DNA of 61,868 bases from Deltaproteobacteria bacterium. Lineage in GTDB: Bacteria; Desulfobacterota; Anaeroferrophillalia; Anaeroferrophillales; Tharpellaceae. The notes below the pieces were generated by a model. That model was not told the origin of the DNA. It made no database searches and saw only the letters and a program-made list of their open reading frames with translations. Below, piece by piece: positions 17,542 through 49,652 of the stretch (its first letter is position 1; every line of letters starts with the position of its first letter). Made by a program: the position numbers and the translations under genes. The stretch is from NCBI GenBank assembly GCA_030633185.1, contig DAOVTG010000001.1, positions 1 through 61,868 of the forward strand. Reading direction: 5' to 3'.

Positions 17542-17557
17542 TCCAACAAAATGAAAA

Positions 17558-30774: not shown

Positions 30775-31656
30775 TTACAGTATTTTTTCAATTTCACCGA
30801 TGAGCTCTTCAATATCAAGTTTGGAAACATGGGCGTTGGCACCTACTTCACGAGCCCTATCTTTCATGCCAATATCGCCGATTGATGAGTAGACGATTAC
30901 CGGGGTTTTCGGTCTCGCCTCTTTAATTAACTTGGTCAGGCTCAAGCCTTCAAGTTGTGGCATCTCGACATCGGTGATTACCAGAGCCCAATCCTCATGT
31001 TCATGAAAAATGTTCAAGGCCTGTTTGCCGTCTTTGGCCGTAATGATTTCAAAACCCATTTCGGAGAGCTCCACGGCCAGCATATCCCTTACAGCCTGGG
31101 AATCCTCGGCAATAAGTACCTTGCGTCCGGCCCCCGTAATCCGGCAATCCTGGGCTTTATTCAGCTCCTGGGTTCTGATCTCCGGGCTGAGCTCTAAAAT
31201 TATTTTTTCATAATCAAGGAGCAGGATATTGGTCTTGTCATCTGGTCTAACGATGCCAATAACGTAAGGACTGCCCAGGTTACCAAGTACCTCTTCGGCG
31301 TCAAAGACCCGCTCCCAGAGAATAGTGTGCAGGTAGTGAACCTTGTCGATAAAAAAACCGTTTTGCCGACGAAAAAATTCGGTAATCAAGATCCGTCCCC
31401 CTCGGGGTTTATACTCTTGATCGGGATCACGCATTTTCAAGAAAACGGCAAGATCAATAATCGGTACCACTAAACCCTGCTCCTCAATGAGCCCGGACAC
31501 CGCCGGATGGCTGTTAACCACGCCTGTCAACTGCTGCGGGGCACTGATTACCCGGCTGGTTTTGAGTACATTGAGACCAAAATGCAAACCGGCGCTGGAA
31601 AACTCCATTATTTTTAATTCATTGGTGCCTGACTTCAGATATGAACCCGGTTCCAT
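30775..31656 (-). CDS. cheV: CheV-like coupling protein (CheW domain plus REC)
   Basis: N-terminal CheW-like fold (LKIMEFSSAGLHFGLNVLKTSRVI...) and C-terminal REC (VLIAEDSQAVRD...VITDVEMPQLEG...SK). Confidence 0.8.
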   Translation of the reverse strand: MEPGSYLKSGTNELKIMEFSSAGLHFGLNVLKTSRVISAPQQLTGVVNSHPAVSGLIEEQGLVVPIIDLAVFLKMRDPDQEYKPRGGRILITEFFRRQNGFFIDKVHYLHTILWERVFDAEEVLGNLGSPYVIGIVRPDDKTNILLLDYEKIILELSPEIRTQELNKAQDCRITGAGRKVLIAEDSQAVRDMLAVELSEMGFEIITAKDGKQALNIFHEHEDWALVITDVEMPQLEGLSLTKLIKEARPKTPVIVYSSIGDIGMKDRAREVGANAHVSKLDIEELIGEIEKIL

Positions 31657-32134: not shown

Positions 32135-34477
32135 TTATATCAGTTTATGGGTGTTGAGGATTAAAATCAGTCGTCCATTACCAAGGATTGAAACTCCGTT
32201 GAAAACATCAATATCTGCAAGCACAGGAGGTAAGGGTTTCATAACAATTTCCATGTTGCGAACAAATTTATCCACAATGATACCAAATTCGCTATCTTTG
32301 CTTCTGATAATCACCAGAAAAACCTCATCAAGCTCGTTGAGCTGTTGCCGTCTCCGCTGGCAATCTTTTCCTCCGGTTAACAGTGTGCTAACAAATGAGA
32401 CTGGAAGTACTTTATCACGGTAATGGAACAGCATATTTTCACCTGTACCACGAATTGAGGCCGGGTGAATTTTAATTGCCTCCACAACATTTTCAAATGG
32501 AAGCCCATAGTTGAGTCCGCAAATCTCAACTAGCAAAACCGTGCTAATGCCCATTGAGGCCGGAATTGTCAGGGTTAACAGTGAGCCTTTTCCCGGTTCG
32601 GAACTGACCTTTACATCCCCGTCAAGAGCGTCGATGGAGGAACGCACGACATCCATTCCCACGCCGCGACCGGAAAGATCTGTAGATTTGTCCATGGTAG
32701 AGAGCCCGGCTTTGAAGATAAGGGCAAGAATTTCCGGTTCATCCATACTCTCTACATCAATCCCGTCTTTTTTCGCCTTGGCCTTTAGTTTTTTCTGGTT
32801 AATACCAGCGCCGTCATCAATAATCCGAATAACAATATTACCGTTCTCCTGGCTGGCGGCCAGGGTAATAGTACCTTTCTCTGATTTGCCGGCGGCTCTG
32901 CGGACTTCGGGTGTTTCAATTCCATGATCGCAGGAGTTGCGAATAAGATGGATCATGGGGTCGGTAAGAGTGTCGGCCACTTTTTTATCAATTTCAGTCT
33001 CTTCACCCTGGAAAACAAGATCTATCTGTTTCTTCTTTTTTCTGGAAATATCACGAACAATACGGGTGAATTTTTGAAAAATAGTTTTAATCGGTACCAT
33101 CCGCAGATCCATGATGCCATGATGCATATCATTAACCAGCCGGGTAAAGTCGTGGAGGTTATCGCTTAATGCCTTCATCGCATCACCAGCAATTTTATCA
33201 TCAAGTCCGGCGAGCAGATACTCGTAAGAGTTCCTGCTTACCAACATCTCTCCAATCAGGTTCCCGAAGTTTTCAATCTTTGTTTCATCGACTTTCATAG
33301 TACGTATTTGATTGTTTTTTGAAAGAGCTTGCAAGTCTGCCGCTCCGGCTACTTCCATGATTTTTTGTTGTTGTAAAGCCCGGTCAATATCTGCGGGTTC
33401 AACTTTGCCCTGTTCCACCAGGATCTCTCCCAAAGCTTTCTGCTCTCCCAGCGCGGCATCCACATCTGCCCGGCTGATTTTGCCTTCTGCAACCAGTATC
33501 TCTCCAATTGGCTGTGGCCCTTTGACAAGGCCATCGGCAAAGTTAATAATCTCTTGCAAAGTTTCGAGAAAATCGGTTTCACTGATCTTTAGCATATCAT
33601 TTGCCAGATCAATAAGAAGGGCCAGGGTTGGTAATGAGATCTCCGCAAGAGCTGAAGATATATCGACCAAAGCCAGACTGATAATCTTTTGTTGCTCAGC
33701 GGATAAAGGTGAGATGTTGTTTTCAACAATGATGTCTCGTTGCCGGATAAGCGTTTCTATAAATGTTATCCTGACTTCGTACTCTTCCTTCGCCAGCAGG
33801 ACAAGACTTTCCTGGATCACGGGATCAACAAGCTCAGTTTGTACTCCTGAAATTTTAATTGATCGAAGTTTTTCTACGACCTCTGATTCAGGTTTTTTGC
33901 TGGCAAAAAGATCTTGCAAAGAGCTACCATAATTGACAATGGCATCAATGATTTTGTCAATCTCATGTCCGGTGGTCGAGAGATTACTGTTTTCCAGTTT
34001 CTCAATATCTTCATGGAACTCAGTCAAGGCAAGTTTGACACAAGAGTAGAAGATATGATCAAGCTTCAGCTCTTTGGATGATAAAAGTAAATCTTTTTCA
34101 TCTTGTTGATATGTGGCTTTAAACTGTTCAACAAGTTCAAGGTTGACTACCGGCGAATCACCAATGCTGGCTTTTTGGAGCATGTTTACAATGTAATCAT
34201 TACCTGACAGGGTTAAATCAATAATCTGTGAGGTAACGACAATTTTTTTATTGCGTAAAGCATCAAGCATCCCTTCAAGATGATGGGCAAAATCAGAGAC
34301 CGTTGAGAGGCCAAAAAAACCAGCTGTGCCTTTTACAGTGTGAATCCCTCGGAAAATGGCGTCAAGAATGGAGAGTTCCTCCGGGTTATTCTCAATGAGT
34401 AACAGGTCAGATGCAACTTTTTCTAAAATTTCATTTGATTCTTGAATAAATTCAAGTAATTCATTGTCAGGGTTCAT
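32135..34477 (-). CDS. cheA: CheA histidine kinase, second paralogue, with two tandem MshEN-like 24-25-aa repeats before the dimerisation domain
   Basis: P1 FRGIHTVKGTAGFFG; repeats PIGEILVAEGKISRADVDAALGEQ / ALGEILVEQGKVEPADIDRALQQQ; P4 MIHLIRNSCDHGIE...GRGVGMDVV; P5 CheW-like. Confidence 0.9.
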   Translation of the reverse strand: MNPDNELLEFIQESNEILEKVASDLLLIENNPEELSILDAIFRGIHTVKGTAGFFGLSTVSDFAHHLEGMLDALRNKKIVVTSQIIDLTLSGNDYIVNMLQKASIGDSPVVNLELVEQFKATYQQDEKDLLLSSKELKLDHIFYSCVKLALTEFHEDIEKLENSNLSTTGHEIDKIIDAIVNYGSSLQDLFASKKPESEVVEKLRSIKISGVQTELVDPVIQESLVLLAKEEYEVRITFIETLIRQRDIIVENNISPLSAEQQKIISLALVDISSALAEISLPTLALLIDLANDMLKISETDFLETLQEIINFADGLVKGPQPIGEILVAEGKISRADVDAALGEQKALGEILVEQGKVEPADIDRALQQQKIMEVAGAADLQALSKNNQIRTMKVDETKIENFGNLIGEMLVSRNSYEYLLAGLDDKIAGDAMKALSDNLHDFTRLVNDMHHGIMDLRMVPIKTIFQKFTRIVRDISRKKKKQIDLVFQGEETEIDKKVADTLTDPMIHLIRNSCDHGIETPEVRRAAGKSEKGTITLAASQENGNIVIRIIDDGAGINQKKLKAKAKKDGIDVESMDEPEILALIFKAGLSTMDKSTDLSGRGVGMDVVRSSIDALDGDVKVSSEPGKGSLLTLTIPASMGISTVLLVEICGLNYGLPFENVVEAIKIHPASIRGTGENMLFHYRDKVLPVSFVSTLLTGGKDCQRRRQQLNELDEVFLVIIRSKDSEFGIIVDKFVRNMEIVMKPLPPVLADIDVFNGVSILGNGRLILILNTHKLI

Positions 34478-34481
34478 ATTT

Positions 34482-36059
34482 TCATATCCGTTTTTGAATC
34501 TCTTCTTTCAGCATCTCTCGTTTTAGGGGTTTGTTTAAAAAACCATTTGCCCCGGCATCGTTGGCCAGCTCTTTTTGGGACTGTTCCGACTCGGTAGTGG
34601 CCATAATAATAGGTAGATCTGAATATTGCGGGCGCTTACGCACCTCTCTAATCAGTTCAATACCGTCCATGTTCGGCATATTCATGTCCGTGATCAAGAT
34701 ATCTATTTGAACCCCGGAATCAAGTATCTCTAACGCCTTCTTGCCATCTAAGGCAGTGGTGATCTGGAGCCCCATCTCCTTGGCCGCACCCTGATAGAAA
34801 AAAAGCAGCGCCTTGGAGTCATCAGCGACCAGCAGATGGGTATCAGAAAGGTTAGCAGCGCTCAACGATTGCAAACCTTTCAAGTCGGCGGCGGCCCGGG
34901 TTCCAACCAGCTCTTTCAAGATCTGACTAAAGAGTTCTGTGGCCTCCGGGTCGTTACTGTCGAGTAGACGCTCTATGAGGATTTCGCCTTGTTCTTTATC
35001 TCTGTAGACCAATTCCATAAGATTACTTGAGCGGGTATCGATCATGGTTTGGATGATTAGGCTGGCCTGAATCTCATTTTCATTAAGGCAGGTTTGGAGC
35101 AAATCCGCGATACGCTCATCGGCTTGTTGTTCAAGGCCGGTGATTACGGCCATAAGTAACAGGTCATCTGTCTGTTTTAGACCATCTATCAAAGTTACCA
35201 GACTGCGGGAAGCTGAAATTCTTCCCAGAGCTTCGTAGAGGGCAAACTTTAGATTTGGTTCAAGCTTAGTCCGGCGATAGAGTAGACGACAGGTAAGTCC
35301 GGCTCCTTTAACATCGCCAATCATGCCGATGAGGTTAGCCGCCAGGATACGTTCGTCTTTGTCGCCAGTGGCGAGACAGGATTCCAGAGCAGGCAAGCTG
35401 GTTGTGCCGATGGCCAATATCTGTTCATGACAAATCATCCGCAGGCCGGGATTAAGGTGATGAATCTGTTCAATCAGAAAAGCCAAGGAGTCATCATCTG
35501 GAAAATGGTTAAATTGAGCTAAGGCCAGGCCCGATTTTAGCGAGTCGCTGCCGGTTTTGACTTCAGCCCTAACCACCTCCATCATCATATCTCGGCCAGA
35601 AATATTTTGCATACGTCCGACATGCGCCATAACCGTACCGCTGATGGTAAGATCATCATGGTCGAGATAGGGGAGCAGGATGGTGAAAATTTCGGCTTCA
35701 CTCAACATTGTCAGAGAGCGGATAATTGCAGTTAAAATCTCGATATCATCGCGATTATCAGCCAGCATTTTTTTTAAGTGTGAAAGTGAATCTTCGATTC
35801 CGGAGGCTCCGGCCATTTTTATCGAAAGCAACCGCACTCGTCGACTCTTGGCCGAAAGTCCGCTCACGATCTCTTTTTGCTGACCAGGCAAGAGCACTAA
35901 TAGAGCGTGATAGACCATCTTGTCTACCGCTGGATCGGCCAGGGGCTCTTCATAAATTCGCAGTAGTCCCAGCAGAGCCGTAATATCTGCGGTTTCCTGA
36001 ATCGTGGCGAGCAGGTTGATCTGCTCGATCATATCTTTATCTTTAAAATCAGTTAACAT
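34482..36059 (-). CDS. HEAT-repeat protein with C-terminal receiver domain
   Basis: About 400 aa of alpha-solenoid/HEAT-like repeats, then REC (LLVADDSKALL...ILITDMNMPNMDG...NKP). Confidence 0.75.
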   Translation of the reverse strand: MLTDFKDKDMIEQINLLATIQETADITALLGLLRIYEEPLADPAVDKMVYHALLVLLPGQQKEIVSGLSAKSRRVRLLSIKMAGASGIEDSLSHLKKMLADNRDDIEILTAIIRSLTMLSEAEIFTILLPYLDHDDLTISGTVMAHVGRMQNISGRDMMMEVVRAEVKTGSDSLKSGLALAQFNHFPDDDSLAFLIEQIHHLNPGLRMICHEQILAIGTTSLPALESCLATGDKDERILAANLIGMIGDVKGAGLTCRLLYRRTKLEPNLKFALYEALGRISASRSLVTLIDGLKQTDDLLLMAVITGLEQQADERIADLLQTCLNENEIQASLIIQTMIDTRSSNLMELVYRDKEQGEILIERLLDSNDPEATELFSQILKELVGTRAAADLKGLQSLSAANLSDTHLLVADDSKALLFFYQGAAKEMGLQITTALDGKKALEILDSGVQIDILITDMNMPNMDGIELIREVRKRPQYSDLPIIMATTESEQSQKELANDAGANGFLNKPLKREMLKEEIQKRI

Positions 36060-36083: not shown

Positions 36084-39029
36084 TTACAATTTGGTTGTGT
36101 TTAATAATAAGATCAAGCGACCATCACCCATAATTGAAGCCCCGCTGATCTCTTCTATATGAGCCAGGGTCTGGGGTAGGGGTTTGACTGCTATTTCCAT
36201 GTTGCGGACAAAACGATCGACAATGAAACCGATGGTGGCGTTACCGATTTTAATGATTACCAGAGAAATTTCTTGAGCCGGATTCAGACAATCTCGATCC
36301 CGGTGTTTGTCCCCCGGTTGGGCTAAGCGATTTTCCAAAAAATCAACTTCGATGACCTGGCCCCGGTAATGAAAGATGAGTCCATCCCCTGCCTTACGCA
36401 GTTCGCTGGGCATAATTTTAATGGTTTCTAAGACATGCTCGAAAGGTAGACCGTAAGACTGGCCGCCTGCTTCAATCAGCAGAATCACAATGATTCCCAT
36501 AGTCATAGGGATGGTCATGGTAAGTTTCGTGCCCGTACCCTCCTCCGAACTCAGTTGGATATGACCGTTCAGCGAATCAATCGTCGAGCGCACGACATCC
36601 ATGCCCACTCCGCGACCGGAGATATTGGTGGCCTGATCCATCGTTGAGAGACCGGCATGAAAGATAAGACCAAGAACTGCGGCTTCATCCATGCCGTCAA
36701 CATCAATACCGGAGTTCATGGCTTTAGCTACAAGTTTCTCTTTATTGATTCCGGCCCCATCATCACTGATCTGGATTATAAGGTTACTACCGAGCTGACT
36801 TGCTGAAAGAGTTACCGTGCCTTTTTTCGCTTTGCCTGTCGCCTCGCGCACTGTCGGAGACTCTATACCATGATCGCAGGCGTTACGGATCAAGTGAATT
36901 AAAGGTTCGGATAGGGTGTCGGCCACCTTTTTGTCGACCTCGGTATCCTCGCCTTTAAGGATGAGTTGGATATCTTTTTTCTGTTTACGGGCGACGTCAC
37001 GAACCACCCGGGTATATTTTTGAAAAATCCCTCTGATCGGGATCATCCGCATGGCCATGATACCATGGTGCATATTTTCTACGAGCCGGGTAAAAAGATG
37101 TAGGTTTTCTTTTAAGGACTTGGTTTGAGCGGCAAGTTCCTGAGCACCATTTATATTCTCCAGGTTATTAATTAAATACTCATAGGAGTTACGTGCCACC
37201 AGAAGCTCACCAACGAGATTGGAGAACTCCTCGATTTTGAGTTCATCAACCCGCATGGTGTGGGTTTCTTTCTCAATCGCCCTGGGCTTCATGGTCTGGG
37301 CAACCTCCATCAGAACCTGTTTTTTCAGGGCTTGATTAACCTCGGCCTTTGCCAGCTTGCCTTGATCAACCAGGATTTCACCGACGGGTTTCTGTTGGGC
37401 CAGGGCTTGAGAGAGATCCTTTTTGCTGACCTTGCCTTGTTCCACAAGGATTTCTCCCAATGGCTTTTGCTGTTCCAGGGCTTCGCTCAAATCCTGGCCG
37501 CTGATCTTACCGTCGGCTACCAGAATTTCGCCCACCGGTTTGGGTTCGCCGGTCAAACCGTCGATGAAGCTGACAATTTCACCAATGGCAGTTACCAGAG
37601 AGGATTCATCTCTATCGAGTGAGTCATGGGCTCGGAGCAGTAGTTTTTTCATGGTTGGTAGATCCACAAAACTACCGGCCCGCTCAAGACCACTCAAGGA
37701 GCGGGTTATGATCTCTCGATCCTCAGAGGCCAGAGGCGAGTTGCTATGCCTGGCCAAAATATCTTTATGCTGCATAACCTGATCGAGAAAAACCTCACGC
37801 ATATCTTCAGGCAGGTTAGCTAGTTCATCCCCGCCGGCAGGGGTTTCATTTGCAGTGCTGTCACGCTCTCCGGCCATAGCCGCTAATTCCTTATAGCCCG
37901 CCGGAAACTCATGTACGGTTTCTCCCTTGGACAATGAGTTAATAAGAGATTTCAGGCCATCCACACCGACCAATAGGAGGTCTATAATCTCAGCATTTGG
38001 TTTAAGCTCGTTTTTGCGGAGACGTACCAGCAAACTTTCCAGAACATGGCCGAAACGGGTGGTTATTTCAAGCTGGAGGTAATCAGCATCGCCCTTGATG
38101 GTATGAGCTCCGCGAAAGAGCTCATCCAGAGCATCTTGGCAACCACTTTTTTCGTAATTGATAACGGCCCGTTCCATGACTTCAATATGCTCTACGGCAT
38201 CGCTTAAAAAGAGGGCAATATCCTCTTCGTCAATTACCGGCAGCAGCATATCGGTTTCGCTATCATCAGTTTCGGCATCGCTGATGTTCGCAGCTTCCAT
38301 TCCCCCTTTACTAACCGCTATCAGGGTCGAGGATAGATGTTCGAGTTCGGTTTGGAGTTCGGTCAGGGGCAGGTTTTCATGGACATCCAACTGTTTGAGC
38401 CGGGCCAGAGTTTTTTCGAGTTTGGCCCCGGCTGAAACTATGGCGCCCAGATCATAGATCTGGGCGCCAGCCACGATAATATGAATTTCGCTATAAAGAT
38501 CATCAAGCAGATCCTGGTTTTGCGAATCGCTCTCAAGCTGGTCGAGGAACTTTCGGGCGGAGACCAAGGCGTCACTGGCCTCACTTATGAACTCTGTCGG
38601 GACGGCAGTTTTTTCACTCTCCTCTTTTTGGGGATTGGGAAAAGAGTTGCTACTTGGTGTTTTCTGGTAGGCGTCACGAAATTGAGTCACTAATTCATCG
38701 TCGCCGACCGGTTCCTCGTCATTTTCAAAAGCCTTAAGCATCAGGCTGATGCGATCAATTCCGGCCAAAATCAGATCTGCAATTTCAGGTTCCAGTTCGA
38801 CCTGATCTTTGCGCAAAGCATCGAGCAGACCTTCAAGGTGATGAGCAAAGCCGGAGACCGCATTTACCTCGAAAGTTCCGGCATTACCCTTGATGGTATG
38901 GATAGAACGAAAGATGGAGTGCATAACATCTTTGTCATCCGGGTTGGCCTCGGCCTGGAGGATATCATCGCTGGCTTTTTCCAGCAACTCTCGCGCCTCC
39001 TCTAAAAATTCTTTTTTAAAATCGTCCAT
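36084..39029 (-). CDS. cheA: CheA histidine kinase, first paralogue, with two Hpt domains and three tandem MshEN-like repeats
   Basis: Hpt1 FRSIHTIKGNAGTF and Hpt2 FRGAHTIKGDADYL; three 25-aa repeats P[VL]GEILVxxGKxxxxxxxxALxxQ; P4 LIHLIRNACDHGIE...GRGVGMDVV; P5. The ATG at 39029 (MDDFKKEF) is 2 nt after the cheY stop; the tracked TTG at 39038 is the alternative. Confidence 0.9.
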   Translation of the reverse strand: MDDFKKEFLEEARELLEKASDDILQAEANPDDKDVMHSIFRSIHTIKGNAGTFEVNAVSGFAHHLEGLLDALRKDQVELEPEIADLILAGIDRISLMLKAFENDEEPVGDDELVTQFRDAYQKTPSSNSFPNPQKEESEKTAVPTEFISEASDALVSARKFLDQLESDSQNQDLLDDLYSEIHIIVAGAQIYDLGAIVSAGAKLEKTLARLKQLDVHENLPLTELQTELEHLSSTLIAVSKGGMEAANISDAETDDSETDMLLPVIDEEDIALFLSDAVEHIEVMERAVINYEKSGCQDALDELFRGAHTIKGDADYLQLEITTRFGHVLESLLVRLRKNELKPNAEIIDLLLVGVDGLKSLINSLSKGETVHEFPAGYKELAAMAGERDSTANETPAGGDELANLPEDMREVFLDQVMQHKDILARHSNSPLASEDREIITRSLSGLERAGSFVDLPTMKKLLLRAHDSLDRDESSLVTAIGEIVSFIDGLTGEPKPVGEILVADGKISGQDLSEALEQQKPLGEILVEQGKVSKKDLSQALAQQKPVGEILVDQGKLAKAEVNQALKKQVLMEVAQTMKPRAIEKETHTMRVDELKIEEFSNLVGELLVARNSYEYLINNLENINGAQELAAQTKSLKENLHLFTRLVENMHHGIMAMRMIPIRGIFQKYTRVVRDVARKQKKDIQLILKGEDTEVDKKVADTLSEPLIHLIRNACDHGIESPTVREATGKAKKGTVTLSASQLGSNLIIQISDDGAGINKEKLVAKAMNSGIDVDGMDEAAVLGLIFHAGLSTMDQATNISGRGVGMDVVRSTIDSLNGHIQLSSEEGTGTKLTMTIPMTMGIIVILLIEAGGQSYGLPFEHVLETIKIMPSELRKAGDGLIFHYRGQVIEVDFLENRLAQPGDKHRDRDCLNPAQEISLVIIKIGNATIGFIVDRFVRNMEIAVKPLPQTLAHIEEISGASIMGDGRLILLLNTTKL

Positions 39030-39030
39030 C

Positions 39031-39387
39031 TCAACCAACCAGCATCTTTACATGTAAAACCAGGGTATTAGGTTTAACCGGCTTGACGATATAAAGATTG
39101 GCTCCGGCCAGGATAGCTTTCTCCTTGTTGGCGGCCTCGGCCTGGGTCGAGATCATGATGATTGGCGTCTCATTATCACTTTGTCGATATTTCTCGACAA
39201 AAACAATACCATCCATATTGGGCATATTGATATCCGAGAGGATAAGATCGTACTTATTGCTCAGGGCTTTTTCCAGAGCTTCGACCCCGTCCATGGCTCC
39301 ATCCGCTTTAAAACCGGCAGCTTTAAGCAAATTTGTATGAAAATTCCTGACAAAACGGGAATCGTCAACTACGAGTACTTTTTTCAT
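39031..39387 (-). CDS. cheY: Chemotaxis response regulator CheY
   Basis: 118 aa, VLVVDDSRFVR, LILSDINMPNMDG, VKP. Confidence 0.9.
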   Translation of the reverse strand: MKKVLVVDDSRFVRNFHTNLLKAAGFKADGAMDGVEALEKALSNKYDLILSDINMPNMDGIVFVEKYRQSDNETPIIMISTQAEAANKEKAILAGANLYIVKPVKPNTLVLHVKMLVG

Positions 39388-39480: not shown

Positions 39481-40317
39481 TCACTCTTTATAATAGACCA
39501 TGTGGTTGGCAGATTTTTTTATTTTGAAAGCCGGATTAATCCTGGAGGGTGATTCGCTGGAGCCCAGAAAAATAAAACCGCCATTATTTAGAGCCAGATA
39601 ATAGTGATCGACCACCTTTTTTCGGGAAATATTGTCAAAATAGATCAGGACATTACGGCAAAAAATGAAGTCAAAATCACGGCAGGGCCGAAGCTGTTTC
39701 CGATCACTGAGATTGATATGTTTAAACGTCACCATATCTTTGATCTCATCCGTGACTTTGAAGATCCCGGCCTTTTGGGTGAAATAGCGAGTTAGATATT
39801 CTTGGGGTACATCTTTGACACTGCGTCGCATATAGGCACCCTGTTGGGCTTTTTCGAGAATATTCAGATCAATGTCTGAAGCCATAATCTCGACATCCCA
39901 ACGTTGGAGATTCTCTAACATCTCCTTGACGATGATCGCTATAGTGTAGGGTTCCTCGCCACTTGAGCAACCGGCCGACCAGATGCGCAGGGTTTGGTCT
40001 CCAGCTCTCTTTTTTTGTTCGACAATCTTGTCCAGACCAAATTCGGCAAATGAGAGTAGTTGGTTAAAGTCACGGAAGAAATAGGTCTCATTTATCGTCA
40101 GTAAATTGAGGAGTTCCTGGAGTTCATGACCTTGATGATCGTGAAACTTGAGGTGGCGCAGATACTCATCGGTATTGGTTAGATCTAAAGCCACAACTCT
40201 TTTTTCCAGCCGTTTGGCCACATAATAGATCTTTTTTTGTTCGAAACGAATGCCGGCTTTTTGGTAAATCAGGTCGGCAAGTCGTTCAAATTCATCAACA
40301 TCAAGTTCAAATCGCAT
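39481..40317 (-). CDS. cheR: Chemotaxis protein methyltransferase CheR
   Basis: N-terminal helical CheR_N and the SAM-binding core (RIWSAGCSSGEEPYTIA, IFCRNVLIYF). Confidence 0.9.
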   Translation of the reverse strand: MRFELDVDEFERLADLIYQKAGIRFEQKKIYYVAKRLEKRVVALDLTNTDEYLRHLKFHDHQGHELQELLNLLTINETYFFRDFNQLLSFAEFGLDKIVEQKKRAGDQTLRIWSAGCSSGEEPYTIAIIVKEMLENLQRWDVEIMASDIDLNILEKAQQGAYMRRSVKDVPQEYLTRYFTQKAGIFKVTDEIKDMVTFKHINLSDRKQLRPCRDFDFIFCRNVLIYFDNISRKKVVDHYYLALNNGGFIFLGSSESPSRINPAFKIKKSANHMVYYKE

Positions 40318-40337: not shown

Positions 40338-41405
40338 TTACAGTAATTCCTTACAAAGTTCTCGTAAATCTTCATCTTTACTATCTTCCATGATCTTTAG
40401 AATCTGGTCTCGTTCGCCGGCAGCAGCTAAGAGACGAACACCCGGCAGGGCCATGGCCGGATCGTTGTTGGAGATTAAGAGTTGGCCCAATTCATTTAAG
40501 AGTGCAATTTTTAGTTTACTTCCGGCTCCCGATTGGCCCAGGAGTAAGCTCTCTACAGCTTGATAACGGGCCTCGTTTCCGGCTTCCGGGTTACGGATAA
40601 TATCAATGAGCAATTTGAGAATTGTCTCTTCGGCCAGAAGGTCGGGAAAACGTTTTAAGGCATCAGTTAACATATTGCTTACCTCCTCACCATAGAGATC
40701 AAGATCGGTGATTGAGGTGGCGAGCCGGATGATGGCTTCTCGTTCTCCGGCTTTGGCGGTAAGCTCAGTTAGCGGGGCCAGGTAGATGGGGTCAATTTCA
40801 GCACTACCGCCCTCCGGGATCAAGGTTGTGAGAATCTTAGTGATGGCATTGGCATCGGCTACCATCGTCATGGTTTCGAGGATGGCCGCCCGCAGCATCG
40901 GCTCATCACTCTCTTTAAAGAGGGTGACCATGTCGGCGACACCTTCGCTATCGGCCATACAGCCCAGATACTCGACCGCAGTGATCTGGACATTGGGCGA
41001 TTCGTCAAAGAGCCCGGCTCGTATCACCAGCAGGGTTTCATCCGAGCCGATCAAATACATTGCATCAAGCACCAGCTTGCGTACCTCCCGGTCACTGTGA
41101 TCAAGTTTGGAGGTCAGAAAAGCTACTGCATCTTCACCCCCTTCACCGAATATAATCACTGCCCCATTGCGTAAAAAGGCGTCAGTCGACATGAAAAATT
41201 CAAAAATCTGATCATGTACTTGAGTGATGTCAAGTCTCTGCAAGCCTGAAATAATGGCATTTTTCACCGCCACCGATTCCTCTTTGGCCAATTGATAGAC
41301 CAGCGGTACCGCCGCCTCAGCCCGGCCCAGATCAGCCAGATCTTCGGCCGCATAGAGTCGGGTAGCCTCATCCGGGCTTTTAAAATCTTTAATTAACTCT
41401 TCCAT
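40338..41405 (-). CDS. HEAT-repeat protein (PBS-lyase-HEAT-like)
   Basis: Repeated ~30-aa helical units (DEATRLYAAEDLADLG, DAFLRNGAVIIFGEGG, DREVRKLVLDAM, SPNVQITAVEYLG, EPMLRAAILETM). Confidence 0.7.
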   Translation of the reverse strand: MEELIKDFKSPDEATRLYAAEDLADLGRAEAAVPLVYQLAKEESVAVKNAIISGLQRLDITQVHDQIFEFFMSTDAFLRNGAVIIFGEGGEDAVAFLTSKLDHSDREVRKLVLDAMYLIGSDETLLVIRAGLFDESPNVQITAVEYLGCMADSEGVADMVTLFKESDEPMLRAAILETMTMVADANAITKILTTLIPEGGSAEIDPIYLAPLTELTAKAGEREAIIRLATSITDLDLYGEEVSNMLTDALKRFPDLLAEETILKLLIDIIRNPEAGNEARYQAVESLLLGQSGAGSKLKIALLNELGQLLISNNDPAMALPGVRLLAAAGERDQILKIMEDSKDEDLRELCKELL

Positions 41406-41427: not shown

Positions 41428-42495
41428 CTAGCCTACTGCACTAATAATCTCATCAGCGATATCCCAACTTGGTGCCACCACGTCAGCTCCGCCTCGTTCG
41501 ATAGCCTCTTTGGGCATGCCGAAGACGATGGCAGTTTCGTCGGATTCGGCGATCGTGCGACCGCCAAGTTCTCTGATTCGAACCATGGCATCGGCACCAT
41601 CATCACCCATGCCGGTCATCAGAACGCCGACGGTATCATCTCCAAATATCTCCATAACCGAGTCCATCATCACCTCTACCGATGGGACAAAGAGATGTTT
41701 GGGACGTACCGGAGTCCGGATAACTAGTTTGTGGCCCGGTCTTCTAAACAGGGTCAGGTGACGTCCGCCAGCAGCTAGATAGATGGTGCCGGGTTTTAGC
41801 TCCATACCGGTCTCGGCATGAACACAGTTCATGGGACAGGCTTGATCTAAACGTTGAGCAAAAGAGGCGGTAAAAGCGGCCGGCATATGTTGAACCATGA
41901 TAATCGCGGCATTAAGATCGGCCGGAATAAAAGGCAATACGTCAAAAATCGTCTTTGGGCCGCCAGTTGATATACCAATAACTATAGCTTTAAAACCTAA
42001 TCCTCTGGTTTTGCCTGCGACCGGTTTGCGGCTTGGCCTGAAGCGTTGTCCGGGGCTACGTTTAGGATCGGTTCGGTGGGGGCGTAATTTGTCCAGGGTG
42101 CCCTGGCTGGTGGCCGCTTTAAGTTTGGCAATAAGTTCTCGGGCGACCTCCTCCATATTAACCGAGACGGTGCCGCCGGGTTTGGCGATATAGTCAAAGG
42201 CACCCAGAGCCATTGACTCAAAAGTGGCCTCAGCTCCCTCCTCGGTCAGGGAAGATACCATAAGAACCGGAGCAATCTTCTCTTCAACAATGATCTGCAT
42301 GGCGCTGATACCATCCAGACCCGGCATATTGATATCCATGGTAATGACATCGGGCCGCAGCTCGCGGGCCTTGGCCACGGCGTCATTACCATCTCGGGCC
42401 GCAGAGATAACTTTGAAACCGCGATCCGATTCAATTATTTTCTTTAAACTCCGCCGCATCAGGGCGGAGTCATCACAAATTAGTACCTTTTTCAT
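41428..42495 (-). CDS. cheB: Chemotaxis protein-glutamate methylesterase CheB (REC plus CheB_methylest)
   Basis: REC (VLICDDSALMRR, VITMDINMPGLDG) and esterase core (IGISTGGP, MVQHMP, MTGMGDDGA). Confidence 0.9.
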   Translation of the reverse strand: MKKVLICDDSALMRRSLKKIIESDRGFKVISAARDGNDAVAKARELRPDVITMDINMPGLDGISAMQIIVEEKIAPVLMVSSLTEEGAEATFESMALGAFDYIAKPGGTVSVNMEEVARELIAKLKAATSQGTLDKLRPHRTDPKRSPGQRFRPSRKPVAGKTRGLGFKAIVIGISTGGPKTIFDVLPFIPADLNAAIIMVQHMPAAFTASFAQRLDQACPMNCVHAETGMELKPGTIYLAAGGRHLTLFRRPGHKLVIRTPVRPKHLFVPSVEVMMDSVMEIFGDDTVGVLMTGMGDDGADAMVRIRELGGRTIAESDETAIVFGMPKEAIERGGADVVAPSWDIADEIISAVG

Positions 42496-42756: not shown

Positions 42757-44715
42757 CTATTCATCTATCTTCATCTTTTTAACTGGTTTTTTTTGGGGTG
42801 CGGTTTTGGCCCGGGGTTTGACCTTTTTCTTCTCCATCGCCGCTATCTCTTTTTTATCATTGGTACTGAGTATCTCATTAATATCAAGCAGGAGAACCAT
42901 GCGTTTGCCTTGGTTGAGTTGACAAACTCCTTCTATAAAGCGGTTTTCGGTGTCACCGGTGACAATGCCTGGAGTCGGGGCGATATCGGCCTTGGGCAGG
43001 CGTAGAACTTCATTGACCTTGTCGACCCGCAGTCCGGTGCGACGGCCTTCAATATCAACGATGATAATTCGGGTGGAGTCATCTTGGTCACGAGATTCGA
43101 GACCAAACAAAGTTCGGATATTAAGCACCGGGATGACATTGCCGCGCAGGTTGGTGACCCCGTCAATAAAGGCCGGAGATTTTGGTACCTGAGTGATCTC
43201 TTCTAAGCGATTAATCTCTTGGACCTGCATGATCCGGACACCATACTCCTCTTTGTCAACAATAAAGGTGACCAGTTGTTCTTCATCCATATCTTTTTGG
43301 GCCAGGCTGATCTCATTTTCAGTTTCGGCATCAGCAGTTTTTTTTACAGCTTCACTCATCTTGCCAAGCTCTTCACTCTCCTCATGGCTGATCAATGATG
43401 ACTCTTCCATGATCATAATCAAGCGTTTGCCATTGTCGAGTTTGGCGACCCCTTTCAACTCTTTTTTGGCTGAGGAAGCAGCCCAGGGGGGGGCATCGAT
43501 AGTCGATTTTGGGATTCGCAAAACCTCGTTTACCGAGTCGACAATGAAACCGACATGAATATCACCCGTCTCCACTACCAGAATGCGCTGGAACTCATTG
43601 ATATTTTTTGCCAGCTTATTCTTGATTGCGATAAATTCTGAGAGGAGAATTTTTTCCAGAGGGGTAATATGCTCTTCGAGATAGAGGACGGCTTCGTCCT
43701 GAGAATGGCTGCGGAGTTTCAGGGCCTCGGCCCCAAACTCATGAAAATTGATGTGGGGGATTCTGATATCATTTATCAGGTCACCGACATCGCCAGAGCG
43801 ATCCTTGGTCAACCATTGACCTAAGGCACATTTAGTCGGATCCAGAGCCCCGTTAAACGGGGCGTTGCTCTGCAAAGACTGTTTAAGATCCTTGAGCCAT
43901 TGTTCATGGATAACCATTATCTCATTGATCTCGTTATGGAACTGTTCTATCAGGGAGGTGTTGCCCAACATGGTCCGCAGATCGAGAATCGGCAGGAGTT
44001 GGTTGCGAATGGTGAGTAGCCCTCGAACATAGTTTGCGGCATTGGGTACTTCGGTAATCTCCCCCACCCGAAGGATCTCCCGCACCCGGTTTATATCGAA
44101 AGCGTACTCCTCGTCTGCGACCTTAAAGGATATAAGTTGTTCTTCATCGATGTTTTTTTCAACCGCATTTATTGCCGTTTTCCCAGCCTGTAGAGCCGCT
44201 TGCTTTTGATCTGACTTAACCTCTTTCGTTTGAACCTGCACAACTTCATCGAGATCCAGGATGAGAATGAGACGAGCCCCATCGTTCATCTTGACTACGC
44301 CGGAGAGGAACTCTCGATCTACCCCTTTGCAAACTGCCGGCGGTTCTTCCATCTGCTCTTTTTTGGTATGCAGTACCTCGCGGACATCATCGACAATCAG
44401 GCCGGTGGCTGTGGTACCAGTTTCAATTACTAATAGTCGGGTGCTGTCATCGGCCTCTTTATGTTCCAGACCAAAACGTTGCCGGCTATTTATGGCGGGC
44501 AACACCGAACCTCGCAAGTTACAGATCCCGGCGACATAGTCGGGGCTCTGGGGAATCGGGGTAATATCCGGTACCCGGACAATCTCCCGCACCGTATTGA
44601 TATCTACGCCAAACTCCTCATCAGCCAGGGCAAAAACCACGAGTTGGCCTTCGGCTGAATCGAGAGATTGGGCGGTTTCCATATTTTCAGACATAATTAA
44701 CTCCGTTTTAATCAT
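42757..44715 (-). CDS. Triple CheW-domain scaffold with a CZB (chemoreceptor zinc-binding) domain inserted in the middle CheW domain
   Basis: Three CheW-like units (QLVVFALADEEFGVDINTVREI, QLISFKVADEEYAFDINRVREI, QLVTFIVDKEEYGVRIMQVQEI). CZB signature H270xxW...C296ALGQW...H321INFH325. An alternative start is the ATG at 44694 (GGAG RBS). Confidence 0.85.
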   Translation of the reverse strand: MIKTELIMSENMETAQSLDSAEGQLVVFALADEEFGVDINTVREIVRVPDITPIPQSPDYVAGICNLRGSVLPAINSRQRFGLEHKEADDSTRLLVIETGTTATGLIVDDVREVLHTKKEQMEEPPAVCKGVDREFLSGVVKMNDGARLILILDLDEVVQVQTKEVKSDQKQAALQAGKTAINAVEKNIDEEQLISFKVADEEYAFDINRVREILRVGEITEVPNAANYVRGLLTIRNQLLPILDLRTMLGNTSLIEQFHNEINEIMVIHEQWLKDLKQSLQSNAPFNGALDPTKCALGQWLTKDRSGDVGDLINDIRIPHINFHEFGAEALKLRSHSQDEAVLYLEEHITPLEKILLSEFIAIKNKLAKNINEFQRILVVETGDIHVGFIVDSVNEVLRIPKSTIDAPPWAASSAKKELKGVAKLDNGKRLIMIMEESSLISHEESEELGKMSEAVKKTADAETENEISLAQKDMDEEQLVTFIVDKEEYGVRIMQVQEINRLEEITQVPKSPAFIDGVTNLRGNVIPVLNIRTLFGLESRDQDDSTRIIIVDIEGRRTGLRVDKVNEVLRLPKADIAPTPGIVTGDTENRFIEGVCQLNQGKRMVLLLDINEILSTNDKKEIAAMEKKKVKPRAKTAPQKKPVKKMKIDE

Positions 44716-44718
44716 TCT

Positions 44719-46644
44719 TTATACATTCTGCATCTCGTCAGCTTGACTGGCGATCTCTTCGATGGCTTCGGCGATATTTTCCATGCCTTTATTGCCTTGA
44801 GTTGCTGCCGTGGAGGCCTCACTTGCGGCCTTAGTCGCAAATTCCGCCGCCTCGGCAATCTCAGCTACCGCCTTATTGACCTGAGCCACAGCTCCCAAGG
44901 CCTGTTTGGCGGTACCATTGATATCCTCAATGCTGGTCTGAACGACATCGGTCTCTTTTTCAATTCGCTCCAGGTTGGAGGAGGATTCTTTGGCATTTTC
45001 CACATCTTGAAGCGAAGTCTTGCCCGCTAGATCAATATCTGCAGCAACAGTGGTGATCTGATCTCGCATCTGGCGTACCATGTCTTTGATCTTGTCAGCA
45101 TTAGTAGATGAATCATCAGCCAAAGTGCGGATATCAGCGGCAACTACAGAAAAGCCGCGGCCAAATTCACCGGCGCGCGCCGCTTCGATGGAGCCGTTAA
45201 CAGCCAACATATTGGTTTGCAATGTAACGTTAACGATTTGATCGACAATTTTGTCAATACGGTTGGTGCGATCCTGAAGGTTTTGGATGTTTCGAGATGA
45301 ATCCAGGGAGGCATTGGCGGCCTTGGAGATGTTGGCGATCAGATTGCCGACATTAACCTTATTGGCGGCCAAAATTTTCTTCAAAGTTTCAATTTTTTCA
45401 GCCGCATCCGTGGACTCTACATCGACATTTTTGGCTCCCTCTTCGACGCGAGATCCCATCTCTATGCATTTTTCAGAAATTTTTGTCTGGTTCTCAGCCG
45501 ATTTGGCGATCTGCTCGATAGCCGCCATAATCTGGCCTGCCGAAGTTGTTGATTCTTCGATGTTGGCGGAGAGCTCTTCGGCGGCCGCAGCCACCTCTTC
45601 CGCCGATTTCTGGGTGTCGGTGGCATTTTTCAGGGAATCGGAGAGTTCTGCGAGCCCTTCGGCAGCGGTCTGCATCTCGGCAAACGCTTTGTTTTGCTCA
45701 TCTAAAGACTTATTGGACTCCTCGCAGGCACTGGCTTGTTCATTGGTTGATCGGCCAATCTCCTCTGCGGCCTTAAAGAACTCGTTGGCACCGTCCAGAA
45801 CCTCCGCAGCTCCTTGATCCACCTTTTTGCTGCCGGTATTTATGGCCAAAAAGATCTCGCTTATCTGATTTAAGTCCTCAGTGATCTGTTTGGATTTTTC
45901 CATCTCTTCACGGCCGGCATTGCCGGAGGCATCCACATCATTAACGACCTGTTGAACCTGTTCTTTGATCTCATCGACCACGTTACGAATGTTACGGGCT
46001 GAGCTTTCTGAAATTTCGGCCAGGTTGCGCACCTCATCCGCAACTACGGCAAAACCGCGGCCATGCTCTCCGGCTCGGGCTGCTTCAATTGCCGCATTTA
46101 AGGCTAGTAAGTTGGTCTGGTCGGCAATGCGGACAACGGTGCCGACAATTTCACCGATCTCTTCAGAATTTTGTTCCAGAACCTTGATCATCTTGGTTGA
46201 CTCAAGATTGCCTTCAACCGATTTTTTAACTCCGGAGATCAAGGTGTCGATGTTTTTATTAATGGAGTCGATCAACTCCTGTAGAGTTGCGATTTTTTCC
46301 AGGTTGGCCTTGCTTAAACCTAAACAGTTCTCGCTGGCCTCCAGGATCTGTTCAATTTCAGTTTTGGAGTTTTCGGCTGCCGAGGCCGCATGTTCAGATT
46401 TGACGGAGATATCTTCCATGTTGCCTGTCAACTCTTCCGAGGAGGCACCAGCTTGTTCCAGAGAAGCCGACATCTCCTCGACTGCCGTTGCCATACGCTC
46501 GGCTAAGGCCTGAGTTCGGGCCAAAGTTCGGGCTTGAGTTTTGGCCTGGGCCTGTTTTTTTGCTGCCGAACGCTTGGCGGCGAGATCTTCGTGGTCTTCG
46601 TTTTTACCGGTAATGCCTGTGGGACGCGCTAGTTTTCTTGCCAT
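44719..46644 (-). CDS. Soluble methyl-accepting chemotaxis protein with two tandem MCP-signal (MA) domains and a basic N-terminus
   Basis: No TM segment. Two complete hairpin tips, [34 protein letters not shown] and [34 protein letters not shown], lie exactly 300 aa apart. The start MARKLARP at 46644 has AAAGGAG upstream. Confidence 0.85.
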
Positions 46645-46754
46645 TTTAAACTCCTTTTTACTCTTTAGATTACGGAAAAGAGGTGGGGGCAATCCCGCCA
46701 TTTTCCTTAAGTTATCGAACTTTTACAAACTGAATAGTTACTTTTTGTTATCTT

Positions 46755-48242
46755 TTACAATATCTGGATACCGCATTCTGCATTGGCTTTACCGCTATCC
46801 AGATCTACGGCGTTGACGGAGAGAACTCCATTGGGGTCGATACTGAAAGTGACATCAATATTGGGCTCTCCTTGGGCTTTCTCTGCGTCCATTTCCAACT
46901 GAAACACACCCAGCGAAGTGAACTCTTCTGACCCTTCATGGCCTCTATCCTGCATGACATGAATAGCGACTTCCGGTTGGTTGTTAGCGGTTGTCGTAAA
47001 AAGTCTGGTCTCAGCGCAAGGGTAGGGGGTGCCTGCGGCGATCAAGGGGATAAAAATGCCTTGATCATCCTCCAAACCAAGATTGTGAGAGGTGATATCG
47101 TGAAATTCCATGCCTGCAATTTCATCGTTCAAAATGCCTGCCAGAATCCCGGCCCCTCGGGCCACCGCTTCATCAGGGTTGACTTGGCGTTTAAAAAGTC
47201 GCTCACGGGTTTCAGCCATGGTCTCCGGATCGGGGCTTAAAAAGCGGCATACCATCTCTTCTACCGCCGGAATCCGGGTGGCACCGCCGACCAGTATGAC
47301 TGAATCCACCCAGTTCGGTTCAAGCTCTGCTCGGGCAAACGTCTCGATTAGATATTTTTCAATATCATGGATAATATCTTTGCTGATCTCGCTGAATTTA
47401 TCCCGACTCAAACTTTGATTCAGATGGATGGGGCCCTCGTCGCTTACAGCAATATAAGGAATCATGACGGTGGTCTCGGTAGAGGAGGAGAGGTCGATTT
47501 TGGTCTTTTCGGCATAAATCACGAGTTGCTGAAAGGCGATCGGGTCGTTACGCAGGTCATAGGGCGAATTAAGGTCGAAAGTTTCAAGGGTATGCTCAAT
47601 AATTTGTCGGTCAAAATTTATGCCGCCAACCGTGGTTGCTCCACCCACCCCACGAACTCTGAAAACTTTGTCGCTGTATTCCATCAAGGTTATATCCAGA
47701 GTGCCGCCGCCCAGATCCAGCACCAAAAGTCGAGCTTGCTCTTGAGTACTGCCCAGGCCATAAGTGAGAGCTGCAGCCGTGGGCTCATTGAGTAATTTGT
47801 GAACTTTGATGCCAGCTATAGTGGCGGCCCGCAGAGTGGCTTGACGTTGATTGTCATTAAAGTAGGCCGGTACCGTGATTACCGCATCGGTGATCTCTTG
47901 CTGCAGGTACTGCTCAGCGCAGTTCTTGAGATGGCTGAGAATTAAAGCTGAAATCTCTTCCGGCAGCAAACTCCGGTCGCCAATTGTATAGGGCTCCGTT
48001 GTCCCCATCATAAGTTTGACATTGCTGACTGTGGAGTCGGCATTGAGTACGGCCTGATTTAGAGCCATTTCGCCGACAATAATCTCCTGTTCAGATTTGA
48101 AACAAACCACTGATGGTGTCGTCCGGCTGCCACGTTCATTCGGGATGATTCGCGGTTGTCCATTTTTGATAAATGAGATCAGGGAATTGGTGGTGCCAAG
48201 ATCGATCCCGACAATTCTTGGCTTCGTCGTTGGTTTAGTCAT
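46755..48242 (-). CDS. Hsp70/DnaK-family protein lacking the C-terminal helical lid
   Basis: IVGIDLGTTNS phosphate-1 motif, VLDLGGGTLDITL, ILVGGATRIP, followed by a beta-sandwich-like region only (about 495 aa). Confidence 0.8.
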   Translation of the reverse strand: MTKPTTKPRIVGIDLGTTNSLISFIKNGQPRIIPNERGSRTTPSVVCFKSEQEIIVGEMALNQAVLNADSTVSNVKLMMGTTEPYTIGDRSLLPEEISALILSHLKNCAEQYLQQEITDAVITVPAYFNDNQRQATLRAATIAGIKVHKLLNEPTAAALTYGLGSTQEQARLLVLDLGGGTLDITLMEYSDKVFRVRGVGGATTVGGINFDRQIIEHTLETFDLNSPYDLRNDPIAFQQLVIYAEKTKIDLSSSTETTVMIPYIAVSDEGPIHLNQSLSRDKFSEISKDIIHDIEKYLIETFARAELEPNWVDSVILVGGATRIPAVEEMVCRFLSPDPETMAETRERLFKRQVNPDEAVARGAGILAGILNDEIAGMEFHDITSHNLGLEDDQGIFIPLIAAGTPYPCAETRLFTTTANNQPEVAIHVMQDRGHEGSEEFTSLGVFQLEMDAEKAQGEPNIDVTFSIDPNGVLSVNAVDLDSGKANAECGIQIL

Positions 48243-48279
48243 TTTAATCAATCAATCCATTATCCAGCTATTCACTAAT

Positions 48280-48669
48280 TTACCAATTTAAAACTGCAAG
48301 ATTTTCCGCAGCTCTCTCATTTTCCGAGTCAATTTTCAGTACCTGTTCAAACATCGCTATGGCTTTTTCTTTGAAACCCAATTCGAAATAGACCAGGCCC
48401 AGGTTGTTCATGGCCTTGATGTTGTTTGGTTGTTGATAATGTACGGCTTGTAAAAAGCCCATGGCATCAATGTAGTTCTCTTTGTTCAAGCAGACCAGCG
48501 CCTGTTGGAACAGATTTTGGATCTGCTGGTCACTTTTTTGTTCTAACTCTTCAATGCGGTGGCGTAAACTTGAAATCTCTTGACTGTTTTCCGGACGCGT
48601 ATCAACTAAGGGCTGGACGCCTTTTTCAAACAGCAACTCTCGAAGAGATATTTTTGCTTTTGCACTCAT
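48280..48669 (-). CDS. Small TPR-repeat protein
   Basis: Coiled N-terminus, then TPR-like units (YIDAMGFLQAVHYQQPNNIKAMNNLGLVYFELGFKEKAIAMFEQVLKIDSEN). The ATG overlaps the parA-like stop (ATGA). Confidence 0.7.
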   Translation of the reverse strand: MSAKAKISLRELLFEKGVQPLVDTRPENSQEISSLRHRIEELEQKSDQQIQNLFQQALVCLNKENYIDAMGFLQAVHYQQPNNIKAMNNLGLVYFELGFKEKAIAMFEQVLKIDSENERAAENLAVLNW

Positions 48670-49424
48670 AATATCTCAATCTTCTGAGTCAGTTTTGCGT
48701 AATCAGAAGCGCCGATACTCTTTTCGTCGTATTCGAAAATTGTTTGACCATGGGCCGGGGCTTCGGCCAAAGTGATATTGGTACGGATGGGAGGTAACAG
48801 TTTGTCCGGGCCAAAAGTTTTCGTGATCTCTTTACCAATCTCCTTGGCCAGTTTGGTGTTTTTATTGTAAAGGGTGGGAATGATGCCGGCCATGCGAAGT
48901 TTCGGATTATAGCTGGCGTTCAACTTGTAAATAACCTGCATCATTTCGGCCAAGCCTTCCATGGCAAGAAAATGCAAAGGCATAGGGATGTAGACCTCGC
49001 GGGCTGCAATAAGGCCGGAAATCATCAATAGCCCCAAGGTCGGCGGCGGATCGATAATAATAAAATCATAATTAACCAACTGGTCGTTCAAATGCTCGGC
49101 CAGTATTATCTCGCTATCTTCCCGGCCGGTATTTTCGAGCTCAAAACCACCCAGTTCACGGGATGCCGGTAAGAGCGAGAGGCCAGCAATATGGCTGGCT
49201 AAAATCACTTCCCCTATGGGCACTCGGTCTAAAAGGACATCGGCCAGGCTGCTTTTGACCATGCCCGGCTTAAAACCCAGACCAATCGTGGTATGGGATT
49301 GGGGGTCGATGTCAACCAATAAGACCCGATGTCCCCGAATGACCAGGCCATGGGCAACATTGACGGCTGTAGTAGATTTCCCACAACCACCTTTACGGTT
49401 GGCAAAGATACAGATTCTGGTCAT
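48666..49424 (-). CDS. ParA/MinD-family deviant Walker-A ATPase at the head of the chemosensory cluster
   Basis: ANRKGGCGKSTTAVNVA (KGGxGKS/T), IIIDPPP Walker B-like. The start MTRICIF at 49424 has GGAGA upstream. Confidence 0.85.
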   Translation of the reverse strand: MTRICIFANRKGGCGKSTTAVNVAHGLVIRGHRVLLVDIDPQSHTTIGLGFKPGMVKSSLADVLLDRVPIGEVILASHIAGLSLLPASRELGGFELENTGREDSEIILAEHLNDQLVNYDFIIIDPPPTLGLLMISGLIAAREVYIPMPLHFLAMEGLAEMMQVIYKLNASYNPKLRMAGIIPTLYNKNTKLAKEIGKEITKTFGPDKLLPPIRTNITLAEAPAHGQTIFEYDEKSIGASDYAKLTQKIEIL

Positions 49425-49652
49425 TTTTTTTCTCCGCAGGTTGACTACAATTTCCGTAAACACTCAGCCTACCTAATGCGTCTGAAATTTCTCGCAAGAG
49501 AACAAACATAATCCTTATTTTACAACATTTTGTGTTGTAATATAAGTAAAAAAAAAGACTAAAATACAACGATAAAACATCTATTAAAACTAGAGGTTTA
49601 AAGAGGGAGAGAGAAAAAGGTTGTTTCATGTTTACTTTTAGAGGTTAGTATG

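Follow-up and report, generated by a model that had tools for sequence, protein, structure and literature searches.

The DNA considered here is a stretch of 61,868 nucleotides (referred to below as the window), comprising positions 1 to 61,868 of contig DAOVTG010000001.1 in assembly GCA_030633185.1, from a Deltaproteobacteria bacterium placed in the Tharpellaceae (Desulfobacterota; Anaeroferrophillalia; Anaeroferrophillales). The window contains a cluster of chemosensory genes, all on the minus strand, in the order DosM-CheW3-CheB-HEAT-CheR-CheY-CheA (Table 1). The first of these genes encodes a soluble chemoreceptor that contains two complete methyl-accepting chemotaxis protein (MCP) signalling domains in a single polypeptide. 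The gene product is very probably a DosM-type receptor, which in F9-class chemosensory systems acts as a scaffold receptor without a sensor of its own.

Domain content and internal duplication of the receptor

The open reading frame (ORF) counted from its first ATG spans 44719..46701 on the minus strand and encodes 660 residues. The ATG at 46644, which the initial annotation took as the start, is preceded at 8 nt by an AAGGAG Shine-Dalgarno sequence and gives a 641-residue product, whose numbering is used below unless stated otherwise. A Pfam scan of this protein identifies two MCPsignal stretches with a total of 207 bits. Each half also exceeds the MCPsignal gathering score of 34.6 when scanned singly, with 117.8 bits for residues 1-343 and 104.7 bits for residues 344-641, and each is intact when aligned to the profile. 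No family other than MCPsignal was found above threshold in the Pfam scan, and no sensor domain was identified. The protein also contains no transmembrane segment, with a maximum 19-residue Kyte-Doolittle mean of 0.95, where a mean of ~1.6 is the customary threshold for a transmembrane helix. The C-terminus reads ...QADEMQNV, in which an NWETF-like pentapeptide tether was not found. These results bear out an initial annotation, made from the sequence alone, which had described a soluble protein without transmembrane segment, sensor domain or NWETF-type pentapeptide and with two complete MCP signalling domains, and had proposed scanning each half with the MCPsignal model.

The hairpin tips of the two domains lie within 28-residue regions found at residues 201-228 and 501-528 of the 660-residue ORF (nt 46018-46101 and 45118-45201), which are 300 residues apart. 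The initial annotation identified both regions and gave the distance between them exactly, while the upper bounds it assigned (46119 and 45219) are each 18 nt too high. A scan against NCBIfam finds no DosM-specific model, only sub-threshold matches to ordinary MCP equivalogs. Matches to SMC/Rad50 coiled-coil models were also obtained in the NCBIfam scan and were rejected as spurious.

The two signalling domains are related to one another. Residues 44-340 and 344-640 form a gapless alignment of 297 residues with 30% identity, and the alignment score of 413 compares with 78 +/- 11 for 200 shuffles (z ~29). Both repeat units open with the residues TQ. A protein search with the receptor sequence returned more than 7,700 matches, and the best 120 of these are nearly all full-length proteins of ~640-690 residues, with a few partial sequences. 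The homologues span isolates (Desulfonema magnum, Desulfosporosinus hippei and Heliomicrobium undosum) as well as metagenome-assembled genomes (MAGs) of Syntrophobacteraceae and Bryobacteraceae. The closest named relatives are encoded on a short contig of a MAG labelled 'Pseudomonadota' (97% identity in the best segment), followed by Syntrophobacteraceae and other deltaproteobacterial MAGs at 54-59%. The source of the window is probably an anaerobe of the Desulfobacterota type. An alignment of 28 homologues, which includes members of the Desulfobacterota, Firmicutes and Acidobacteria, has a tip-to-tip distance of 300 residues in every sequence and a C-terminal arm of 148-150 residues. Since the tip signatures and the 300-residue spacing are kept in all 28 sequences, the two-domain receptor is the product of an ancient duplication, following which the tips diverged and were then separately conserved. 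Outside of the signalling domains, the N-terminal segment is conserved among homologues (A32, K35 and T40 are invariant), as is the extreme C-terminus (44722-44760, minus strand; A635, D636, E637 and Q639 are invariant).

The initial annotation had also named an assembly artefact as a concern. The longest direct DNA repeats within the gene are imperfect 19-23-mers, which excludes an assembly repeat that was collapsed or duplicated. The broader suggestion of a gene fusion, or of a single ORF created from two MCP genes that were adjacent or collapsed, has a negligible probability, and nothing was found in its favour. The protein identity between the halves is only 30%, DNA repeats in the gene do not exceed 23 nt, over 100 independent homologues of full length (640-690 aa) are present in isolate genomes and separate assemblies, and the tip spacing is identical throughout the 28-sequence alignment. 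These homologues are also the outcome of the search for the same tandem architecture in other genomes that the initial annotation had proposed.

Relationship to DosM and F9 chemosensory systems

A receptor with this architecture has been described in Vibrio cholerae. DosM (VC1403) of V. cholerae cluster I, an F9 system, forms an extended rod across both baseplates, and the array requires it. DosM is located at every other trimer-of-dimers in V. cholerae, and such receptors are found in other genomes with F9 systems (PMC7534058). VC1403 has been classed as 44H (supplement of PMC7534058). F9 systems are defined by a gene order of MWB...RYA together with the signature proteins 'MCP_signal:MCP_signal' and 'CheW:CheW:CheW' (PMC9321776 Table S1), and their typical order is [DosM W3 B. 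R Y A] (PMC9321776 Table S6). Full F9 clusters are present in 64 of 2,781 complete genomes (~2%), and 98% of DosM homologues contain only two signalling domains (PMC9321776).

The window matches the published F9 definition item by item, with a tandem MCP receptor, a CheW3 protein and the expected gene order. Like VC1403 (Briegel et al. 2016, summarised in PMC7534058 and PMC9321776), the receptor is soluble and sensor-less with tandem MCP domains and arms of a length compatible with 44H. The arrangement of the genes is also shared with the V. cholerae F9 system, wherein dosM is directly upstream of the triple-CheW gene and is followed by cheB, a hypothetical/HEAT gene, cheR, cheY and cheA. In contrast to V. 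cholerae, the window adds a second CheA, a HEAT-REC protein and a CheV-like protein downstream, along with ParA-like, TPR and Hsp70-like genes upstream, and its CheW3 contains a CZB insertion.

Additional support comes from sequence comparison with other receptors. A tblastn search against annotated plasmids and chromids identified double-domain MCPs in Azospirillum, Novosphingobium, Methylobacterium, Sphaerotilus and others. Two of the matches, WP_111069911.1 from Azospirillum ramasamyi and WP_069710031.1 from Novosphingobium resinovorum SA1 (E = 1e-27), are listed as DosM by Mo et al. 2022 (Table S6 of PMC9321776), and each is encoded within a DosM-CheW-CheB-(HEAT)-CheR-...-CheA cluster. The BLASTP alignment with A. 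ramasamyi DosM covers 588 residues without a gap (38% identity, E = 3e-85), indicating that the 300-residue spacing is shared between phyla. The two loci resemble the window in their DosM, CheW3, CheB, (HEAT), CheR, CheY and CheA neighbourhood. They differ in that the DosM proteins, which belong to another phylum, have N-terminal extensions of different length, and the CheW3 proteins (553 and 465 aa) lack a CZB-type insertion.

The same gene order is also observed near other homologues. The order double-MCP, long CheW, CheB, HEAT, CheR, CheY, (STAS), CheA recurs in Desulfosporosinus, in a Bryobacteraceae MAG and in the closest MAG, while the Desulfonema magnum locus keeps the part from DosM to HEAT to CheA, with CheY after CheA. 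CheR was not called in the D. magnum locus. The sequences of the two CheAs in the window are only suggestive of F9 membership, as their kinase cores share 33-34% identity with that of the A. ramasamyi F9 CheA. The presence of two histidine phosphotransfer (Hpt) domains in one of the CheAs raised class F4 (HPT[2]:CheA, Table S1 of PMC9321776) as a candidate. This class was rejected as the DosM/CheW3 signature and this gene order are both absent from F4, making F9 the better fit.

The initial annotation had pointed to the adjoining triple-CheW protein and CheAs and to the relevance of the receptor for sandwich-like arrays, which agrees with the literature on VC1403 and F9 systems. It had also implied that the tandem receptor was novel, and this part does not hold. 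The architecture, the role in the array and the distribution have already been published (PMC7534058, PMC9321776); consequently, the finding is correct but not new.

Table 1. Positions of the receptor gene, its protein features and the neighbouring genes in the window
Feature	Position	Strand	Remarks
dosM-type gene	44719..46644	minus	641 aa; ORF with Shine-Dalgarno sequence; stop codon 44719-44721
DosM N-terminal 43 residues	46516..46644	minus	basic and Ala-rich (11 Lys + Arg, 10 Ala); outside the 300-aa repeat unit
Signalling domain 1, aa 44-343	45616..46515	minus	hairpin with arms of ~150 residues; Pfam and half-versus-half alignment
Hairpin tip 1 (12 residues), tip Glu aa 193	46051..46086	minus	EHG[RK]GF in 28/28 homologues
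Mid-rod junction ATDT, aa 341-344	45613..45624	minus	DSSP break in AlphaFold2 model; confidence (pLDDT) dips to 73
Signalling domain 2, aa 344-641	44722..45615	minus	Pfam; best PDB match 2ch7 (TM1143), E = 3.4e-18
Hairpin tip 2 (12 residues), tip Glu aa 493	45151..45186	minus	E[FY]GRGF in 28/28 homologues
cheW3, triple-CheW adaptor	42757..44715	minus	start 3 nt after dosM stop; Pfam CheW 350 bits in 4 stretches
CZB-type insertion, ~124 aa (CheW3 aa 262-385)	43561..43932	minus	nested in middle CheW domain
cheB (REC + methylesterase)	41428..42495	minus	
HEAT-repeat protein	40338..41405	minus	'.' between B and R in canonical F9 order; same in A. ramasamyi F9 cluster
cheR	39481..40317	minus	
cheY-like single-domain response regulator	39031..39387	minus	118 aa; assigned by sequence and position
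cheA	36084..39038	minus	984 aa; two Hpt domains; 33% identity to A. ramasamyi F9 CheA (kinase core)
HEAT-REC protein	34482..36059	minus	beyond canonical F9 set
Second cheA	32135..34477	minus	780 aa; 34% identity to A. ramasamyi F9 CheA; extra relative to canonical F9
CheW-REC (CheV-like) protein	30775..31656	minus	beyond canonical F9 set
Hsp70/DnaK-like protein	46755..48251	minus	498 aa; between TPR gene and dosM
Small TPR protein gene	48280..48669	minus	upstream of cluster
ParA/MinD-like ATPase gene	48666..49463	minus	upstream of cluster

Structure of the receptor and its placement in the array

The structure of the receptor has been modelled with AlphaFold2 (AF2) using the 28-sequence alignment. 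The monomer model, a prediction that the initial annotation had recommended, is all-helical (residues 18-640) with a mean predicted local distance difference test (pLDDT) score of 88.6. Residues 1-18 are predicted to be disordered, with the onset of the helix at residue 18. Confidence drops at both tips, and the sole break in the helix is found at residues 341-344, located 150 residues from either tip. There are no prolines in residues 44-641. Among solved structures, the cytoplasmic domain of TM1143 from Thermotoga maritima (PDB 2ch7), a 44H MCP, is the best match for each half of the receptor by phmmer (E = 1e-23 and 3e-18), and Foldseek superimposes one hairpin of the model on 2ch7 over 298 columns with a target-normalised TM-score of 0.64. 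TM1143 differs from the receptor described here in that it is a transmembrane receptor with one hairpin per chain. A double-domain receptor structure was not found among the Foldseek and sequence matches to solved structures. The arms of the receptor are 148-150 residues long (~21 heptads each), which is compatible with class 44H, as is the match to 2ch7.

At 0.148 nm per residue, the 300 residues between the tips correspond to ~44 nm. For comparison, Tar is a 36H receptor, and two Tar hairpins would span ~37 nm from tip to tip. Baseplates were measured to lie 35 nm apart in V. cholerae, compared with 31 nm in sandwiches formed by the cytoplasmic fragment of E. coli Tar (PMC3964821). If the same inward offset of a few nm on each side is applied, the 44-nm estimate would be brought to ~38 nm, reasonably close to 35 nm. 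A 44-nm rod would thus fit the measured spacings provided that the baseplate layer sits a few nm inside each tip.

Based on the homology to V. cholerae DosM, the receptor is proposed to function as follows. Two DosM chains would most likely pair to form a continuous four-helix rod of ~44 nm whose tips lie at opposite ends. Both tips would join trimers-of-dimers and bind CheW3 and CheA, such that the two baseplates of a flat cytoplasmic sandwich array are tied together, stabilised and held at a set spacing by the rod. The invariant distance of 300 residues between the tips would act as a ruler. From the arm lengths, it may be speculated that both ends of the protein sit at the central junction of the extended rod, where the helix formed by residues 18-43 could splint the second half. 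Sandwich arrays are also formed by the single-domain receptors TlpC and TlpT of Rhodobacter sphaeroides and by Tar fragments in vitro (PMC3964821), and these share the double baseplate and the hexagonal arrangement of trimers-of-dimers with F9 arrays. In the single-domain arrays the layers are joined only via the membrane-distal ends of the receptors, whereas in F9 arrays one covalent chain spans both layers.

The junction at the centre of the protein could also be read in a different manner. The chain might fold back at residues 341-344 to place the two hairpins side by side in a four-helix bundle of ~22 nm that has its two tips at the same end, so that a monomer would mimic an ordinary receptor dimer within a single-layer array. 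The four-residue helix break in the AF2 model, which has the lowest pLDDT exactly at the midpoint, and the abundance of cap-like Thr, Asp and Ser residues at the junction are consistent with such an intramolecular pseudo-dimer. Furthermore, the four arms are equal in length (~150 residues), making a fold-back sterically possible. The pseudo-dimer is nevertheless very unlikely, as the published DosM density obtained by subtomogram averaging is that of an extended rod crossing both baseplates (PMC7534058). The tips are also distinct and separately conserved (EHG versus E[FY]G), which is more easily explained if each tip has a different environment, and the strict 300-residue spacing suits a ruler between baseplates. 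Of the two geometries considered in the initial annotation, the published electron cryotomography of V. cholerae favours the bridging one over the pseudo-dimer.

Several points weigh against the assignment of the receptor as an F9 scaffold. The sequence comparison was confined to two published DosM accessions other than VC1403. The formal F-class scheme uses phylogenetic profiles of CheA, CheB and CheR (Wuichet and Zhulin 2010 / MiST), while the class was assigned here by gene order and signature proteins. The cluster departs from a canonical F9 cluster in that it contains two CheAs (one with two Hpt domains), a HEAT-REC protein and a CheV-like protein. The estimate of 44 nm exceeds the 35-nm spacing in V. 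cholerae, such that some offset or overlap must be assumed, and the extended geometry is borrowed from the tomography of V. cholerae. Finally, a search for receptor tips across all 62 kb of the window identified no gene for a partner receptor; V. cholerae has the PAS-type partner MCP VC1406, and the window encodes no such partner nearby. Partner receptors, on which the V. cholerae array depends, must be encoded elsewhere in this organism.

Signal input, the CheW3 adaptor and neighbouring genes

Since the DosM-type receptor lacks a sensor domain, its input has to be supplied by partner receptors whose genes lie outside of the window. The CheB and CheR proteins of the cluster probably act on methylation-helix-like EE/EQ motifs in both halves of the receptor, and the equivalent positions of these putative motifs in the two halves make modification by CheR and CheB plausible. 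In an alternative reading, DosM would itself be a signalling receptor rather than mainly a scaffold, with both halves methylated and demethylated by CheR and CheB, and with conformational signals travelling along the rod to couple the kinase activity of the two baseplates. Two 10-residue motifs resembling the methylation consensus, positioned 130 residues before each tip, are consistent with a signalling role, as are the EE pairs that are invariant in the family (E349/E350, E356, E363) and the conservation of cheB and cheR in F9 clusters. In opposition to this, DosM has no sensor domain, the motif matches are sequence patterns only, and the F9 literature treats DosM as structural (PMC7534058, PMC9321776). 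A signalling role is somewhat doubtful, and it is compatible with the scaffold role and not exclusive of it.

A second source of input may exist in this lineage, as the CheW3 protein contains a CZB domain. The insertion in CheW3 matches Pfam CZB (PF13682) with 40.4 bits (gathering threshold 29.4). The predicted zinc-ligand motif HxxW..CxLGxW..HxxxH is located at residues 270-325 of CheW3 (nt 43741-43908), and all four putative ligands (H270, C296, H321 and H325) are intact. Pfam reports four CheW stretches in this protein because the insertion splits the middle of three CheW domains. A fourth CheW domain was therefore rejected, as the alignment reveals three domains with the middle one interrupted. 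The splitting of the middle domain may explain why some F9 adaptors were scored 'W4' in the published survey (PMC9321776).

The insertion is widespread among close relatives of CheW3, the closest named relative being a Candidatus Desulfofervidaceae MAG (90% identity). The insertion occurs in 119 of the 120 nearest CheW3 homologues, only 27 of which have all four ligands, with E-T-R-Y as the commonest alternative. The CheW3 proteins of the closest MAG and of Desulfonema contain degenerate CZB versions, and those of Azospirillum, Novosphingobium and Desulfosporosinus are without the insertion. The ~77% of related CheW3 proteins that keep the insertion without the full set of ligands would suggest, judging from these residues, that a sensor has decayed into a structural spacer. 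'CheW-CZB' is a catalogued CZB architecture that accounts for 1.4% of CZB proteins (PMC8262984) and is a known CheW fusion (PMC10653840), and the F9 survey names CZB only in two DosM homologues (PMC9321776). The nesting of CZB in CheW3 is thus a modest variant, and a description of it as a nested insertion in an F9 CheW3 was not found in the literature.

These features tentatively suggest that sensing could be built into the baseplate itself, wherein the CZB domain of CheW3 could couple Zn2+, redox or HOCl status directly to kinase control beside a sensor-less DosM, and the ParA-like, TPR and Hsp70-like genes upstream may position or partition the array. The pairing of ParA-like and TPR genes recalls the ParA-like partitioning of cytoplasmic chemoreceptor clusters by PpfA in Rhodobacter sphaeroides.

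The genes upstream of dosM vary between loci. The ParA-like/TPR pair is kept upstream of dosM in Desulfonema magnum (locus L001) and in the closest MAG (locus L002), and is not found upstream of dosM in the Desulfosporosinus or Bryobacteraceae loci. The Hsp70-like protein matches DnaK models up to approximately position 490 of ~600-625 with scores far below the DnaK equivalog cutoffs, and the C-terminal lid region appears to be missing from its sequence. The Hsp70-like gene is common only to the closest relative (L002), indicating that it is not a general component of F9 clusters. Elsewhere in the window, positions 16001-18000 have a GC content of 0.365, relative to 0.43-0.50 in the remainder.

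The value of this finding lies in the correct annotation of the gene as a DosM orthologue within an expanded F9 cluster, and the double tip raises no new structural question. For specialists, the points of interest are the invariance of the 300-residue spacing and the tip-specific signatures (EHG versus E[FY]G), both kept across phyla, and the CZB-type insertion within the middle CheW domain. Further well-defined clusters, especially those from anaerobic sulfate-reducer lineages, aid comparative work on the biological role of F9 systems, that of V. cholerae included.

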